64,000 bases of DNA from a virus: positions 1 through 64,000 of IMG/VR virus record IMGVR_UViG_3300023178_000030; one strand, 5' to 3'. Numbering within the stretch: position 1 is the stretch's first letter; each line of letters opens with the position of its first letter. The position numbers and the translations under genes were made by a program. The notes beneath the pieces are model-generated. The model searched no databases. It was not told the DNA's origin and saw only the letters and a list, made by a program, of their open reading frames with translations. Below are positions 7,375 to 14,425 of this stretch, in pieces.

Positions 7375-7778
7375 ATGATGTAATATGGAATCCAGAGCAG
7401 ATGCTCGAAATCAAACTAAAAGAACCAGATGACTTTTTAAAAGTTAGAGAAACACTTTCAAGAATAGGTGTTGCATCTCGAAAAGAAAAAAAGTTATATC
7501 AAAGTTGTCACATCCTACACAAACAGGGAAGTTATTATCTAGTACATTTTAAAGAATTGTTTGCACTAGATGGTAAAACCACAAACATTTCAAGTAACGA
7601 CATTGCAAGAAGAAATTCTATAGCTCAACTATTAAAAGATTGGGGTTTAGTCGAAGTAGTTGGTAACATAGATAACAAAGCACCACTTTCCCAAATCAAA
7701 GTGATTTCATTTAAAGAAAAGGGTGAATGGATTTTAGAAACAAAATATAATATTGGAAATAAAAGGACAGAAGAATGA
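7371..7778 (+). CDS. regA: Translational repressor RegA
   Basis: DDFLKVRETLSRIG, LYQSCHILHKQG, VHFKELF. Confidence 0.96.
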   Translation: MNDVIWNPEQMLEIKLKEPDDFLKVRETLSRIGVASRKEKKLYQSCHILHKQGSYYLVHFKELFALDGKTTNISSNDIARRNSIAQLLKDWGLVEVVGNIDNKAPLSQIKVISFKEKGEWILETKYNIGNKRTEE

Positions 7779-8020
7779 TTATAAAAGCTTTACGAGCAAA
7801 ATACAAATATGAAATTGCATCTGCAAAGGCAAACATTGAAGTGTATAGGAATAATCCAGTTGGTGTAGGAGAACATCCTGATTTAGTGAGTGCAGTAGAT
7901 TGTGAATTGAAAAAACTTACTGACGCAGAGGATAAATTAAATACACTTATTAAGCATTACCCATATGAAGCCCATGGAGAAGATGATCCTGAAAAGAATC
8001 AAGAAACTCTTTTTGGTTAA
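7775..8020 (+). CDS. Conserved phage hypothetical protein
   Basis: NPVGVGEHPDLV motif; translationally coupled to regA. Confidence 0.65.
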   Translation: MIIKALRAKYKYEIASAKANIEVYRNNPVGVGEHPDLVSAVDCELKKLTDAEDKLNTLIKHYPYEAHGEDDPEKNQETLFG

Positions 8021-8024
8021 TTCG

Positions 8025-8094
8025 TAAGTCCCTGATTTTAAACAAATCTTTTTTGGTATTTTGTATTGACAACAAACCAGTATTTTGATAAAAT
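8025..8094 (+). promoter_or_regulatory. IHF-consensus site plus sigma70-type promoter
   Basis: TAAGTCCCTGATT at 8025; TTGACA 8066, 17 nt spacer, TAAAAT 8089. Confidence 0.8.
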
Positions 8095-8127
8095 ATTATT
8101 ATTAACTAAACAAATATGAGATAAATT

Positions 8128-9726
8128 ATGATTATGAAATTAATTGAAAATGCTAAACAGTTACTAACTGTACCAGAAGAATTAAAAGAAGAGTTTGAAA
8201 GTGATAAGAGAATATGGACTAGAGTTGAAATTCCTATCGAATTATATTTCAAACTTTCAATGACGGATAACTATTCTTTTAAACATTACCCTCCAAATAA
8301 AAATCAAGTTATTGATCCTAATGATAAATGTAATAGAACTGATAGAAATGATTTGTTGAAAAAACAAGGAATTTTAAAGTGTATATTTGCAGGAATGCCT
8401 ATTCCAGATTTGTCTTTAGTCATTAAAAATAAAAGAAGAAGTATACTTGATGTGAAACAACAAGTTGCTTCAGTTAATGATGGTGGCCACAGAAGTAGAA
8501 CAATTATAGAATTTAAAGCAAATCAAATTAAAACAAGTCCTGATACTGTTTTCTATACTGAAAATAATACTGAAATAAAAATTGGTGATATGACTTATGA
8601 CGAAATTAAAAAGAAATTTCCTAATGCAGTCAAAAAATTTGACGGATATCTTTTGTGTTTAACACTTCAATGGAATCTTGATTCTAAACAAAGAAAAATG
8701 GATTTTGATTGTAGAAATACTCAAAACAAAATTGAAAGACAAGAAGGTAGAAATGCTAATGACGATAATAGAGTTGCTGATGGTGTTCGTAATGCTGTTA
8801 ATAAAATTTTCGGTGAAATAGATGCACGACCTGTTCACAATGTTTTTACAAAAGATGTTTTAGGTTTTAAAAATGATAAAATGGTTTATGATGAAATTGT
8901 TGCAAAGATAATGAAAATGAATCATGAATATGAAGAGCATGGTGGTCATACAGATTTAACTAATGATTCATTAGATGAATTTTATCTAAAAGGTAGTTAT
9001 GCAGGAACTGATAATGGTATCTTTTATAAAAACACAAAGCAATTCAAGAAGTTATTAGATAATACTTATAAAGTTTTAGATTTTTTAGAAGGTGTATTAA
9101 CTGAATGGCCTCAAAAAATTTATGCAAAGAAACAATTAGTTGTTCATGCACTTTTAAGATGGTATTTTCAATATAAAAAAGATTTACAAAATGAAAATCT
9201 TTCTTTAGAATACAATGGAACATTTCGTATTGATTACAAAAAGTTTGCCACACAGTTTGCTAAAGTTGTTATGTTGGAAAATACAAACAATGAAGAAACA
9301 GGTAAATGGACAGGTAAAGAAAAACTTCCTAGAGTATTTGGTGAAGCATTTACTGGTTTTCTAGGTCATTTTAAAAATGATATTAAAATGCAATTAAGTG
9401 TTAAATGGATAATGAATAGTTTTTATGATTCACTTAAAACATTAGAAGATGAAGAAAAATTTGGTTTAACACATTTCGATAGTAGACCTTCTTTTAATAC
9501 TAAAGATATTATTCAAAAATGGATGGATAACGGTGAAAAAGATTGTTTAAAAAACGAACCTGTAAGTTCTGATGATATACAAGGTGACCATGCAATTCCT
9601 AGAAGTCATGGTGTAGTTGCAGGTGGTGTAACCGAGAAATCAAACCTTAAGATTCTTCACAAAGATGATAACAATAAAAAGTCAGATAGAACATTTGAAG
9701 AATATAAGAAAGTTATCAACGAATGA
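8128..9726 (+). CDS. DUF262(ParB-like)-HNH protein, GmrSD/SspE-like nuclease
   Basis: GMPIP and DGGHR (DGQQR-like) in the N-terminal half; C-terminal HNH GDHAIPRSHG...GGVTEKSNL...NNKKSD. Confidence 0.7.
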   Translation: MIMKLIENAKQLLTVPEELKEEFESDKRIWTRVEIPIELYFKLSMTDNYSFKHYPPNKNQVIDPNDKCNRTDRNDLLKKQGILKCIFAGMPIPDLSLVIKNKRRSILDVKQQVASVNDGGHRSRTIIEFKANQIKTSPDTVFYTENNTEIKIGDMTYDEIKKKFPNAVKKFDGYLLCLTLQWNLDSKQRKMDFDCRNTQNKIERQEGRNANDDNRVADGVRNAVNKIFGEIDARPVHNVFTKDVLGFKNDKMVYDEIVAKIMKMNHEYEEHGGHTDLTNDSLDEFYLKGSYAGTDNGIFYKNTKQFKKLLDNTYKVLDFLEGVLTEWPQKIYAKKQLVVHALLRWYFQYKKDLQNENLSLEYNGTFRIDYKKFATQFAKVVMLENTNNEETGKWTGKEKLPRVFGEAFTGFLGHFKNDIKMQLSVKWIMNSFYDSLKTLEDEEKFGLTHFDSRPSFNTKDIIQKWMDNGEKDCLKNEPVSSDDIQGDHAIPRSHGVVAGGVTEKSNLKILHKDDNNKKSDRTFEEYKKVINE

Positions 9727-10547
9727 TTGATACTATCTTATGTGATGTTATTAAAACAAATGTTAAATCAGAAAATTTTGTGGCCCTACTTTTATCAGGT
9801 GGGGCCGATTCTATCAGTATTGCGTTCTCTCTGCATCGCCTAGAAATCCCAGTTCACGCCTACTCATTTCGATTGGATACCCAAAACAATTACGATTTCA
9901 ATAAAGCCAAAGAAATTAGTGAAATTTTGAATTTTGAATTTACTGGTGTTGTTATTAATACATCTAATTTAGTTCAAGACTTTCATAAATTAGTTTCTCT
10001 TGGTGCAAAAAAGAAAACAAACTTTGAAGCAATCTATCCCTTTCTTCATGTCTTTCCAAAGATAAAAGAATCTTATGTTGCTACTGGCTGGGCCGCAGAT
10101 GGGTACTATGGTTTATCAAAAAAAGCAAACATACATTTCAAACATACTAAAGAATTATTTGATAAGTTTAGAGATAATTATTTTTTACCAGAAAATTGTG
10201 CTAGTTATTCTTTTCTTAAAAAAGTATCAGATATGCACAATAAAAAGTTAATTGCACCTTATCTTGATTCTAAAGTTAAAGATTATTTTTACACTATGGA
10301 TTGGGATGAGTTAAACAAACCTTATCAAAAACATCATGTTAGAAAAGCATTTGAAAAAGAATTTAATATGATTGGTAAAGTTAACAAACATTTGAATCTA
10401 CAATTAGAATCTAAAGTAGATAAATTATTTGAAACACTTATCGACAATAAAAGAATTAATTTTAAATCCAGACAAAGAGTTATGGATATTTGTAGAGATT
10501 GGTACTTGCTAAATAATACTAACACATTAGAAAACTTTTTTGAATAA
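9723..10547 (+). CDS. Asparagine-synthetase-like ATP-dependent amide ligase (no glutaminase domain)
   Basis: PP-loop LLSGGADS, TGWAADGYYG, APYLD. Confidence 0.75.
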   Translation: MIDTILCDVIKTNVKSENFVALLLSGGADSISIAFSLHRLEIPVHAYSFRLDTQNNYDFNKAKEISEILNFEFTGVVINTSNLVQDFHKLVSLGAKKKTNFEAIYPFLHVFPKIKESYVATGWAADGYYGLSKKANIHFKHTKELFDKFRDNYFLPENCASYSFLKKVSDMHNKKLIAPYLDSKVKDYFYTMDWDELNKPYQKHHVRKAFEKEFNMIGKVNKHLNLQLESKVDKLFETLIDNKRINFKSRQRVMDICRDWYLLNNTNTLENFFE

Positions 10548-10551
10548 AAGT

Positions 10552-10580
10552 TTGACAAAACACAATTAATACTATATAAT
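10552..10580 (+). promoter_or_regulatory. sigma70-type promoter
   Basis: TTGACA, 17 nt spacer, TATAAT; ATG only 8 nt after the -10 box, so possibly leaderless. Confidence 0.75.
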
Positions 10581-10588
10581 GGTTCTAT

Positions 10589-11737
10589 ATGAAATATAAT
10601 CCTTACACATTACAAGATGTTATCAAAGCATCTTCACAAAACAAATTTTCTGTAATATCAACATTCGCTGGTGGTGGTGGCAGTTCTACTGGCTATCGTC
10701 TTGCAGGTGGTAATATACTTTGCATGAATGAATTTGTTGAAGAAGCTCAAAACACTTATAGAGAAAATTACCCTAACACTCCGATCTTACCTGGTGATAT
10801 TAAAAAATTATCAGGTAAAGATTTTCTTGACATTGCAAAACTTGATGTTGGTGAATTAGATATTCTAGATGGTTCACCTCCATGTTCTGCATTTAGTGTT
10901 GCAGGTAAATTATCTCATAGTAAAGATGGTAAACATAGTGATGGTTGGGGTCAAACTAAAAATTATTCTGACGGTAAGATGGTAGAAAATATCGAAGATT
11001 TATTTTTTGAATTTCTACGAGTGGCTGATGAAATAAAACCAAAAGTTATTATTGCAGAAAATGTTGCAGGTCTTACTGTCGGTGAAGCAAAAACATATTT
11101 CAATAAGATACAGAATACATTTGAAGATATAGGTTATGATGTATGTGCAAAAGTTTTAGACAGTCGTTACTTTGGTGTATCACAAACAAGAACAAGAGTA
11201 TTCTTTATTGGTTTACGAAATGATATTACAACAAAAGCTGGATTAACATTTATGAATATTGCAAATGTATTTCCTGAAGAAAGTAGAGATATTGTTTCGT
11301 TAGAAGAAGCTTTAAAAGATTTAGAGTATGATTCTGAAGAAGTAAAGATGTTAACAGACAGATTTTCAAATACTGCATACTGGAAACAAACTGGTAGTAA
11401 AATGCCAAACAATCCAGACAAAGTTTTGACAGGTGGTGACTATCATCCTAAAGGACATCACTTTAATCTTAAGAGAGTTTCTCTAAAACAACCAGGTCCA
11501 ACATTAACTGCAATGGGTTCACAGATTACAACAGCAGGTGCTTTCCACTGGAACGAACCTAGAAAGTTAACAATAGGTGAATTGAAAAGAATACAATCAT
11601 TACCAGATGATTTTATTTTAACAGGTAAGTGGAATCAAAAAGCAGAACGCATTGGAAGAATGGTACCACCATTACTTCTAAAATCAATTGCAGATTCCGT
11701 TTATGAAAAAGTTATTAAGGAGTATAAGAATGGCTGA
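10589..11737 (+). CDS. C5 cytosine DNA methyltransferase-family protein, probable carboxymethyltransferase
   Basis: FAGGGG (motif I), GSPPC (IV), ENV (VI), QTRTR (VIII); motif X reads GRMVPP rather than GNxVP. Confidence 0.9.
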   Translation: MKYNPYTLQDVIKASSQNKFSVISTFAGGGGSSTGYRLAGGNILCMNEFVEEAQNTYRENYPNTPILPGDIKKLSGKDFLDIAKLDVGELDILDGSPPCSAFSVAGKLSHSKDGKHSDGWGQTKNYSDGKMVENIEDLFFEFLRVADEIKPKVIIAENVAGLTVGEAKTYFNKIQNTFEDIGYDVCAKVLDSRYFGVSQTRTRVFFIGLRNDITTKAGLTFMNIANVFPEESRDIVSLEEALKDLEYDSEEVKMLTDRFSNTAYWKQTGSKMPNNPDKVLTGGDYHPKGHHFNLKRVSLKQPGPTLTAMGSQITTAGAFHWNEPRKLTIGELKRIQSLPDDFILTGKWNQKAERIGRMVPPLLLKSIADSVYEKVIKEYKNG

Positions 11738-12425
11738 TTTTACATTCGCACATAGAGAAGAAGGTTTTGATGAACATATTGAAAACTCTATTCGTGGTTA
11801 CAGTAATTTATTAAATGACATTATTAGTTTCTCTACATATTTTGTAGAAGATTCAACTAACATAGTTGATATTGGATGTTCTACTGGTAAACTAACAGAA
11901 GCAATTATTGAAAAGAATCAAGACTGGGCTAAAGAAGCAACTTATATCGGTATTGAAGTTGCAGAAGGTTTCTTTAAAAATGTAGATGATAGATTAAAAC
12001 AAATCAATGATAAGTATGATTGGGCAGAAGTTGAATTTATAAAAGATGATGTTCGTAATTATAAGTTTGATAATTGTAATCTAGTAACATCAATATTTAC
12101 ATTACAGTTTATGCCTAAACAAGATAGACAGAAACTTATTGAAGATATTTACAATGGATTAAACCCAGGTGGTGCATTTATTTTTGCAGAGAAAACTATT
12201 TGTGAAGATGCAAGATTTCAAGATATGTTAACATTCAATTATTATGATTACAAAAGAAAATCATTTACTACAGATGACATTCTAAACAAAGAGATCACAT
12301 TAAGACACATGATGAAACCAAATACATACAAAGAGATAGAACAAATGTTATCTAGTGCAGGTTTCAAAAACATTCAACCGTTCTGGCGAAACTTTATGTT
12401 CGTTGGTATTCTAGCAGTTAAATAG
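11730..12425 (+). CDS. cmoA: Carboxy-S-adenosylmethionine synthase (CmoA-like)
   Basis: FDEHIENSIRGY, DIGCSTG, FTLQF, GGAFIFAEK, C-terminal F..ILAVK; start placed after SD AAGGAG. Confidence 0.85.
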   Translation: MADFTFAHREEGFDEHIENSIRGYSNLLNDIISFSTYFVEDSTNIVDIGCSTGKLTEAIIEKNQDWAKEATYIGIEVAEGFFKNVDDRLKQINDKYDWAEVEFIKDDVRNYKFDNCNLVTSIFTLQFMPKQDRQKLIEDIYNGLNPGGAFIFAEKTICEDARFQDMLTFNYYDYKRKSFTTDDILNKEITLRHMMKPNTYKEIEQMLSSAGFKNIQPFWRNFMFVGILAVK

Positions 12426-12436
12426 GAGGATATATA

Positions 12437-12844
12437 ATGATGAAAAACGCATACTTAAAAAAGTATCAAGATTTTGTAGATTTTACAACCAGTCAACAAA
12501 GTAAAGACACAAGATATTTCAAAGATACTGTTGACTTAATTCGTGAACATAGATTACCACCAGAAAGAATTATTACAGCCGCAATGGGTTTGTCATCAGA
12601 ATCAGGTGAATTCGCAGAGATTATTAAGAAGATAGTATTTCAAGGTAAACCAATTGAAGAAGAAACAAAGTTTCATTTGAAAAGAGAATTAGGTGATATA
12701 CTTTGGTATGTTTGTCAAGCTTGTATTGCACTTGATACAGATTTAGAAGAAATAATAGAAATGAATATTAACAAATTAGAAGATAGATACCCAGGTGGTT
12801 TTAGTGAGTTCAATTCTAATAATAGAAAAGAAGGTGACTTATGA
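12437..12844 (+). CDS. mazG: MazG-like NTP pyrophosphohydrolase
   Basis: [36 protein letters not shown]. Confidence 0.9.
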
Positions 12845-13881
12845 GTAATTTTTTAAAAGATATGTTGAAGGCTTCAGGTAATGAATATGCTTCAATAGTT
12901 GATGATGGTGTTGAAGGTGGTGATGTAGATAGTTTTATTGATACAGGTTCTTATGTATTAAATGGTTTATTATCTGGAAGTATTCATGGTGGATTACCTT
13001 CAAATAAAATAACTGCACTTGCAGGTGAATCTGCAACAGGTAAAACTTTTTTCTTGATGGGTATGGTAAAAAACTTTCTTGATTCAAACCCTGATGCAGG
13101 TGTTTTATATTTTGAATCAGAAAGTGCAATAACAAAACAAATGGTTATTGACAGAGGTATTGATCCAAAGAGAATGATTATTCTTCCTGTGACAACTGTT
13201 CAAGAATTTAGAACAGAAACACTTCGAGTTTTGAATAAGTATCTTGAAACACCTGAATCAGATAGAAAGAAAATGATGTTATGTCTTGATTCGTTGGGTA
13301 TGTTATCTACTACAAAAGAAGTTGAAGATACTAGTGAAGGTAAAGAAACTAGAGATATGACAAGAGCACAAGTTTTGAAAGCCGCATTTAGAGTTATCAC
13401 TCTAAAATTAGGTAGAGCTAAATTACCAATGGTAATCACAAATCATACCTATGATGTCGTAGGTTCAATGTTTCCCACAAAAGAGATGGGTGGTGGTTCA
13501 GGATTAAAGTATGCGGCTTCATCTATTGTTTATCTTTCAAAAAGAAAAGAGAAAGATGGTACAGAAGTTGTAGGTAATATTGTTCATTGTAAGAATCATA
13601 AATCAAGATTGACAATAGAAAACAAAATGGTAGATGTTAGATTATCATATGATAAAGGTTTAGATAGATACTATGGTTTACTTGACTTGGCAGAAAAGTA
13701 TAACATCATAAAGAAAGTATCAACAAGATATGAATTACCTGATGGTACTAAAGCATTTGGTAAACAAATCAATAGAGAACCTGAAAAGTATTTTACAGAA
13801 GATATTATGAATCAATTAGAAGATGCTTGTAAAAAAGAATTCAAGTATGGTAACAAATTAGAGGCTGTAGAAGTTGAGTGA
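12841..13881 (+). CDS. uvsX: RecA-like recombinase UvsX
   Basis: [24 protein letters not shown]. Confidence 0.95.
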
Positions 13882-14425
13882 TTCATATATAAGAGTTTAT
13901 GATAATGTTATCGAAACATCTTTATGTAAAGAGTTAATAGAACAATTTGAAAACAATCCAAAACAACAAGAAAATGTTGTTTTTGAAGAACAAATGTCAT
14001 TTAAACAAATCACATTACAACAACATGATAATTGGAAAAAGTATTGTGACAAGCTTCAGAAAGTATTTTTTTCATATATAGAAACATATTCAAAAGATTG
14101 CGATTTGCTTTCATATAAAGTATTTCCAGAGAAGTTTGCATTTGAAATGTTTCGTATGAAAAGATATTTACCTAACAATAAAGATATGTTTGATTATCAT
14201 GTTGATGTAGGTGATTATGAAAGTGCAAGAAGATTTTTAGTTTTCTTTGTTTATCTATCTGACAATGAACATGGACATACATACTTTCCAAATTACAGAA
14301 TGTCTGTTCAACCTGTAACTGGAAAACTATTAATGTTTCCACCATTATGGACACATGTTCACACAGGAATCAAACCAGTCAAAGAACCAAAATATATTAT
14401 AGGAAGTTATTTACATTATGTCTGA
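13874..14425 (+). CDS. 2OG-Fe(II) oxygenase (prolyl-4-hydroxylase-like)
   Basis: [20 protein letters not shown]. Confidence 0.85.

Follow-up and report, generated by a model that had tools for sequence, protein, structure and literature searches.

An orthologue of the CmoA-CmoX-CmoY DNA hypermodification pathway predicted in an uncultured marine T4-like phage

A block of three genes in a stretch of viral DNA recovered as IMG/VR record IMGVR_UViG_3300023178_000030 very probably encodes a DNA hypermodification pathway orthologous to the published CmoA-CmoX-CmoY system, the chemistry of which has been demonstrated only in Synechococcus phage S-B43. The stretch that we analyzed (hereafter, the window) comprises the first 64 kb of the 78,962-bp record, which is estimated to be ~53% complete and represents an uncultured marine T4-like phage.

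In the S-B43 pathway (Yang et al., Nat Commun 2025 (December), PMC12783734), SpCmoA converts S-adenosylmethionine (SAM) and prephenate to carboxy-SAM (Cx-SAM); SpCmoX, which has been solved in complex with Cx-SAM (PDB 8YF3), transfers the carboxymethyl group to C5 of cytosine at GC sites; and SpCmoY, when supplied with ATP and glycine, ligates glycine to the new carboxylate to yield 5-glycylcarboxymethylcytosine (5gcxmC). SpCmoX uses Cx-SAM only, not SAM; its residue R350 contacts the carboxylate of the cofactor, and the R350N variant is inactive. The virion DNA of S-B43 contains 5gcxmC at GC sites and no free 5-carboxymethylcytosine (5cxmC). The same study catalogued 5,615 candidate CmoX sequences and recorded that many CmoX genes lie close to genes for ParB-domain proteins to which no role has been assigned. 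Thus, the system is already known, having been described in December 2025, structure and chemistry included, along with thousands of homologues, and the cassette described here is one further member. An earlier note on the window had referred to a cyanophage system consisting of CmoA, a methyltransferase and a ligase and had allowed that the core of its proposal might not be new; S-B43 is such a system, and the route proposed in that note (Cx-SAM synthesis, C5 carboxymethyl transfer, and ATP-dependent amidation) matches the S-B43 pathway by orthology.

Three predicted Cmo enzymes

The three genes are located on the plus strand between positions 9723 and 12425, where the earlier note had placed them:

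9723..10547, plus strand: cmoY orthologue, 274 amino acids (aa); Pfam Asn_synthase, homology to SpCmoY
10589..11737, plus strand: cmoX orthologue, 382 aa; Pfam DNA_methylase, match to PDB 8YF3
11730..12425, plus strand: cmoA orthologue; homology to SpCmoA; ribosome-binding site AAGGAG at 11717-11722

CmoX has the C5-cytosine methyltransferase fold (Pfam DNA_methylase, E = 3.7e-59) and is 60% identical to SpCmoX over nearly the full length (E = 2e-171; E = 4.2e-148 against PDB 8YF3). The S96-P-P-C99 motif aligns with S95-C98 of SpCmoX, which identifies C99 as the catalytic cysteine. Within the motif X region, ERIGRMVPP, to which the earlier note had drawn attention, the second arginine (R357) aligns with R350 of SpCmoX (ERVGRMVPP), at the position where methyltransferases have asparagine. 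The Cx-SAM contacts F26, E48, F49, and D70 (F25, E47, F48, and D69 in SpCmoX) occupy invariant alignment columns, as do the cytosine-contacting residues E157 (ENV at 157) and R201/R203 (QxRxR at 199-203). The ENV and QxRxR motifs are retained in all 25 relatives compared, and the arginine at the R357 position in 24 of these, the exception being the Methylophilales phage Melnitz, which has leucine. All the named catalytic and Cx-SAM-contact residues are therefore conserved, and CmoX is predicted to be a DNA cytosine-C5 carboxymethyltransferase orthologous to SpCmoX. Among cultured phages, close homologues of CmoX were found only in the S-B43 group and in S-CRM01.

CmoA shares 59% identity with SpCmoA over 229 aa (E = 2e-107) and matches E. 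coli CmoA (4GEK) over the full length (E = 2.6e-29), and is predicted to be an orthologous carboxy-SAM synthase acting on SAM and prephenate. More distant homologues of CmoA, and also of CmoY, are encoded by Erwinia, Dickeya, Pseudomonas, and Yersinia jumbo phages and by Staphylococcus phages.

The third protein, CmoY, contains the Pfam Asn_synthase domain at residues 6-117 (E = 1.4e-11) with an intact PP-loop of the SGGxDS type (S25-G-G-A-D-S30) and lacks the glutaminase domain. A phmmer search against PDB sequences yielded no match at E = 0.01, such that a fold search was needed for its placement. The AlphaFold model of CmoY (predicted local distance difference test, pLDDT, 91; predicted template modelling score, pTM, 0.89) was compared using Foldseek, which aligned it with no more than the synthetase half of each of four enzymes, namely beta-lactam synthetase, E. 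coli AsnB, human ASNS, and carbapenam synthetase, with E-values between 1e-10 and 1e-8 and query TM-scores (TMq) of 0.64-0.75; for the first three, E was 1e-10 and TMq 0.70-0.75, and among the matches were 1MC1, 1CT9, and 6GQ3 (E = 1e-10). Pfam, the PP-loop, and Foldseek thus agree with the earlier description of the gene product as an asparagine synthetase-like PP-loop enzyme without a glutaminase domain, and CmoY is predicted from sequence and model to be a stand-alone AsnB-type, ATP-dependent (AMP-forming) amide ligase. CmoY and SpCmoY are 46% identical over 262 aa (BLASTP E = 3e-82) and can be aligned over essentially their full lengths (274 and 271 aa, respectively).

All minus-strand open reading frames (ORFs) across the region are shorter than 85 aa. 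The matches of the plus-strand products to the S-B43 proteins have E-values of 1e-82 to 1e-171, which excludes chance.

Proposed pathway and the identity of the amine

In the pathway that we propose for this phage, CmoA would first produce carboxy-SAM from SAM and host prephenate. CmoX would then flip the target cytosine out of the duplex phage DNA, with Cys99 attacking C6 and the carboxymethyl group being transferred to C5 while Arg357 holds the carboxylate of Cx-SAM; the product would be 5cxmC, probably at GpC as in S-B43. Finally, CmoY would adenylate the carboxylate of 5cxmC and couple it to an amine, most likely glycine, to give 5gcxmC. Because the genes belong to the early replication module and follow sigma-70-like promoters, the enzymes would be expected to act on phage DNA after replication, shielding it from host restriction enzymes. 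It should be noted that, for this phage, we infer the GC target, the glycine amine, the early expression, and the anti-restriction role.

The earlier note had left the amine to be identified. In S-B43, the amine is glycine, and the same amine is the likely, albeit not assured, substrate of the CmoY considered here. The SpCmoY cluster was delineated in a similarity network at a threshold of E = 1e-56 (PMC12783734), and the CmoY-SpCmoY comparison falls well inside this threshold, bearing in mind that its E-value refers to a single pair and not to the network of that paper. Alternatively, the pathway could proceed identically to 5cxmC but end with a different amine (another alpha-amino acid, ammonia, or a polyamine), in which case the final base would not be 5gcxmC. 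Such an outcome, which we regard as possible but clearly less probable than glycine, draws on CmoY being the least conserved member of the trio, but the pairwise E-value is far inside the cluster threshold, the two proteins differ by only three residues in length, and they share the same domain make-up along a full-length alignment.

Evidence weighing against the assignment

Several observations weigh against assignment of the block to the Cmo pathway, or against particular parts of it. First, CmoA matches the TIGR00740 model with full coverage (E = 1.3e-38), but it scores 133 bits where the equivalog cut-off requires 193.3; with NF011995, the score is 108.8 bits, the cut-off being 285. CmoA belongs to a divergent phage clade.

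Second, Arg199 of E. coli CmoA is the only residue that contacts the carboxylate of Cx-SAM (PMC4482062), and in the HMMER alignment this arginine pairs with the glutamate of the window motif NKEITLR, whereas the arginine of the window motif pairs with Glu203 of E. coli, an exchange equivalent to an i, i+4 swap on what is expected to be a single helix. The earlier note had voiced doubt over this very motif. However, on alignment the motif does not speak against function: the active SpCmoA reads DKEKELR at this position, and the 20 distinct phage CmoAs that we collected, the active SpCmoA among them, all have KExxLR. Because the biochemically active SpCmoA shares it, KExxLR is best regarded as a mark of the phage CmoA clade and not as a defect. 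For the same reason, we considered and rejected the possibility that CmoA has been inactivated through loss of the arginine equivalent to E. coli Arg199, given that SpCmoA is active with the same substitution. KEITLR corresponds to residues 185-190 of CmoA (window 12281-12301). The kcat of SpCmoA is 2.33 per s, ten times faster than that of the E. coli enzyme (PMC12783734); given that tight binding of the product is believed to hold back the E. coli enzyme, it is tempting to speculate that the shifted arginine might relate to this tenfold difference in turnover.

Third, CmoX and SpCmoX share only 43% identity across the variable (target-recognition) region and, therefore, specificity for GC is not assured. 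Fourth, at ~18 IMG/VR loci (L045-L062) a CmoY-like gene (46-49% identity) is present, but neither cmoX nor cmoA occurs in the flanking sequence retrieved (up to 5 kb); homology of the ligase alone therefore does not fix its substrate. In these cases, either the partner genes are sited elsewhere in the genome or the ligase family includes members with another substrate. At one such locus (L053:5001-5822), the CmoY-like gene adjoins a T4 RNase H-like gene and a DUF6433 gene.

Palindromes, which provide weak, indirect evidence partly for and partly against the assignment, were counted in the 79-kb record (window 1-64000 together with L082) and compared with the expectation from a second-order Markov model. 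The window contains 1,363 GpC sites, and 14% of cytosines are in GpC. GC-core palindromes without CpG are over-represented (AGCT, 1.73; GGCC, 2.11; TGCA, 1.20 times expectation), but the GpC-containing palindromes CGCG (0 found, 10 expected) and GCGC (3 found, 20 expected; 0.15) are depleted. Depletion also affects ACGT (0 found, 86 expected), GATC (75 found, 278 expected; 0.27), CCGG (0 found, 7 expected), GTAC (0.54), and CATG (0.66), and the CpG odds in the record are 0.47. In S-B43 and S-CRM01, the two other Cmo phages sampled, GC-core palindromes are not significantly avoided, whereas Melnitz, which has no Cmo cassette, avoids AGCT (0.66). This pattern is weakly consistent with protection of GpC sites, in a comparison of three genomes in which codon usage is a possible cause and CGCG and GCGC are exceptions. 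The deficits in ACGT, CCGG, CGCG, GATC, and GCGC point to strong restriction-site avoidance that is apparently not relieved by Cmo modification.

Organization of the cassette

Three further features accompany the cmo genes in the block:

8066..8094, plus strand: sigma-70-like promoter (TTGACA, 17 nucleotides (nt) with TG, TAAAAT); 11/12 agreement with the consensus, the second-ranking site within 7700-13000; located in the gap that precedes the nuclease-like gene
8128..9726, plus strand: 532-aa putative ParB-fold/HNH accessory gene; its stop codon overlaps the cmoY start (ATGA)
10552..10580, plus strand: promoter with perfect sigma-70 consensus (TTGACA, 17 nt, TATAAT); 12/12 matches, best in 7700-13000; in the 41-nt gap before cmoX

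The gene block has only two intergenic gaps, and each contains one of these sigma-70-like sites. From the consensus matches alone, this arrangement suggests that the host polymerase would transcribe the cassette early. The start codon of cmoA is assigned to ATG 11730, 7 nt after AAGGAG, which results in an 8-nt overlap with cmoX (ATGGCTGA). The earlier note had reported that the transferase and CmoA genes overlap, and they do, but by 8 nt rather than by the 50 nt that would follow from a start at TTG 11688; the latter was rejected, since ATG 11730 is preceded by AAGGAG and gives an N-terminus in agreement with those of SpCmoA and E. coli CmoA. The ATGA overlap, the 8-nt overlap, and the confinement of promoters to the two gaps are the signs of an operon, as far as can be told from the DNA itself.

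The order of the genes varies among Cmo cassettes: it is Y-X-A here and in most marine contigs, A-Y-X in S-B43, and A-X in S-CRM01, and a further group of contigs has X-A followed, after 1.8 kb, by Y. The genes cmoX, cmoA, and cmoY are found linked together in dozens of IMG/VR contigs.

A second CmoX paralogue

A second gene of the CmoX type is located beyond the window, 62 kb away from the first (record 73565-74683; L069:1444-2562). Its product, CmoX-2, is 56% identical to the window CmoX and 54% identical to SpCmoX and contains both SPPC and the arginine-bearing ERIGRMVAP. Identity between the two paralogues is 68% across the N-terminal, catalytic part and drops to 37% across the variable region. 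The entire record contains one cmoA and one cmoY. In other contigs, orthologues of CmoX-2 (73% identity) are the CmoX of the cassette itself (gp44, X, A, regA), and each of the cultured Cmo phages has a single CmoX copy. Hence, one phage can hold two arginine-type carboxymethyltransferases, an arrangement that makes dual target specificity worth testing.

A putative ParB-fold/HNH gene coupled to cmoY

The 532-aa protein encoded directly upstream of cmoY contains a C-terminal Pfam HNH domain at residues 472-521 (E = 3.7e-6), and the motif VNDGGHRSR (DGGHR) is invariant in its family. Assignment of the N-terminal region relies on structural comparison. When residues 20-202 of the model were compared using VIA-align, the best matches were BrxU (Z = 7.3) and SspE (Z = 7.1), followed by ParB, KorB, and sulfiredoxin (Z = 4-6, with ParB at about 6), all below the level that the tool considers clear. 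Its neighbours in the ESM Atlas (score 0.95-0.97; TM 0.55-0.69) include clusters with GmrSD_N and HNH. By contrast with these leads, Foldseek with the whole model found nothing significant (BrxU ranked first, E = 0.24); Pfam at E-values up to 10 and a profile search of PDB sequences gave nothing beyond HNH; PF03235 (GmrSD_N) and PF02195 (ParB_N) had no match at E-values up to 1 in 13 family members or in the genome; none of the PADLOC models matched the protein; and tblastn against 50,697 phage records was likewise without a match.

With 22 clusters among 5.8 billion proteins, this is a small family. Its neighbourhoods were taken from IMG/VR loci, and in all four members with enough flanking sequence the gene is associated with the Cmo cassette, being directly upstream of cmoY-X-A in three (L004, L005, and L006) and 2 kb away in the fourth (L007). 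Conversely, most Cmo cassettes, including that of S-B43, are without the 532-aa gene. In a near-identical relative (L009), the DNA is 97% identical to that of the window up to position 8053 and 93% identical from 9722 onward, but the intervening segment (window 8054-9721), which carries the promoter and the 532-aa gene, is replaced (L009:1311-2471) by a different 341-aa ORF that also abuts cmoY and for which the Atlas gave weak ParB_N/Srx leads. The 532-aa gene may thus represent a nuclease-bearing version of the ParB-type partner noted in PMC12783734, and this small family, seen only beside Cmo cassettes in members with enough flank, is a concrete candidate for those unexplained partners.

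This association raises the question of whether the main role of the cassette is to render the phage immune to the coupled, putative GmrSD-like HNH nuclease, and not to defend it against host restriction. The four co-directional genes at 8128-12425 would then constitute a restriction-modification-like module, in which the nuclease attacks DNA that lacks the 5cxmC-amide mark or bears a rival mark (for example, the TET-type cytosine mark of Melnitz-like relatives) and the two CmoX enzymes, through their diverged recognition regions, label two motifs as self. The ATGA overlap between the nuclease gene and cmoY, their shared promoter, and the presence of all four informative members of this small family beside or within 2 kb of cmoY-X-A speak for such a module. 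However, most cassettes, those of S-B43 and the near-identical L009 among them, do without the nuclease gene, so that modification works without the nuclease. In addition, the solved GmrSD relatives are known to act on modified DNA and are not known to act on unmodified DNA. We consider both the module and a primary role in self-immunity unlikely, and retain the hypermodification pathway, directed against host restriction, as the preferred interpretation.

That the transferase is an ordinary 5-methylcytosine (5mC) methyltransferase, that CmoA is an auxiliary for the uridine 5-oxyacetic acid (cmo5U) modification of host tRNA, and that their adjacency is coincidental is highly improbable: tRNA wobble modification is the textbook role of CmoA, and databases label the phage homologues 'tRNA methyltransferase', but Arg357 replaces the motif X asparagine and SpCmoX with the same arginine takes only Cx-SAM, cmoX and cmoA overlap by 8 nt and are linked in many contigs, and phage S-B43 is without CmoB (PMC12783734).

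Phage backbone

The cassette is located in the replication (early) module of a T4-like phage, with gp45, gp44, gp62, and regA upstream, and mazG, uvsX, a 2-oxoglutarate (2OG)-Fe(II) oxygenase gene, and a gp41-type helicase gene downstream. The GC content of the phage is 30%. UvsX is 81% identical to that of Melnitz, 73% to that of Pelagibacter phage HTVC008M, and 64-67% to those of cyanophages; because it is closer to Melnitz and HTVC008M than to cyanophages, the backbone is assigned to the Melnitz/pelagimyophage-like, and not the cyanophage, type. The 2OG-Fe(II) oxygenase gene (window 13874-14425) follows uvsX also in Melnitz and many cyanophages, and no link between it and the Cmo cassette was found.

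Comparison with known systems

The closest characterized system is that of S-B43 (comparison locus L001). All three enzymes are present at full length in the window, with the catalytic cysteine, the Cx-SAM arginine, the other cofactor contacts, and the PP-loop retained; in both phages, the ligase is without a glutaminase domain, the phage is a T4-like myovirus, and its replication module houses the cassette. The two differ in gene order (A-Y-X in S-B43, Y-X-A here), in the presence here of a second CmoX paralogue and of a putative ParB-fold/HNH gene translationally coupled to cmoY, and in the phage itself, S-B43 being a cyanophage, whereas the window has a Melnitz/HTVC008M-like backbone with 30% GC. 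For the field at large, very little is added by one more cassette; what merits retaining is the second CmoX, the family of putative ParB-fold/HNH proteins linked to the cassette, and the exchange of Cmo and TET cassettes at one slot, to which we return below.

Each component also has relatives outside of the Cmo pathway. Window CmoA is homologous over the full length to E. coli CmoA of the tRNA cmo5U pathway (4GEK, 4IWN) and has the same SAM-binding motif I, but in all 20 phage CmoAs Arg199 is replaced by Glu and Glu203 by Arg, and window CmoA has no CmoB partner, although no search of the record aimed at CmoB was made. The precedent for CmoX is the engineered M.MpeI N374K, in which a basic residue in place of the motif X asparagine enables the C5-methyltransferase fold to transfer the carboxymethyl group from Cx-SAM (cited in PMC12783734); the basic residue is lysine in M.MpeI N374K and arginine in CmoX, the former enzyme is engineered whereas the latter is natural and belongs to the CmoX clade, and the target is CG for M.MpeI N374K but GC for SpCmoX. 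CmoY shares the fold and the PP-loop with the acyl-adenylate-forming synthetase domain of AsnB, beta-lactam synthetase, and carbapenam synthetase (Foldseek E = 1e-10, TMq ~0.74), but is half as long, lacks the N-terminal Ntn glutaminase domain and, at least in the case of SpCmoY, has a DNA base as the acyl substrate. The 532-aa protein resembles the GmrSD type IV enzymes (BrxU) and SspE in combining a putative ParB/Srx-fold N-terminal domain, which carries a DGxxR-type motif, with a C-terminal HNH-type nuclease. In contrast to BrxU and SspE, its gene is encoded by a phage and adjoins a modification cassette, and the resemblance, at Z ~7, is not accompanied by a sequence-level match to GmrSD_N, ParB_N, or the PADLOC models.

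The nearest cultured relative, Melnitz, carries a different cassette in the same slot, just upstream of mazG-uvsX (L003:4010-8386). Its C5-methyltransferase is 39% identical to window CmoX, with leucine at the position of R350, and is accompanied by a Tet_JBP oxygenase, a P-loop kinase, and a 427-aa protein of unknown function, but by neither CmoA nor CmoY. The chemistry of this TET/JBP-based, 5mC-derived cassette differs from that of Cmo. Thus, the full Cmo trio is present in uncultured marine myophages of the Melnitz/pelagimyophage clade, the cultured members of which use TET-type cytosine chemistry or none at the same slot, and, as judged from gene content, Cmo-type and TET-type cytosine chemistries have been swapped at one slot within a single phage clade.

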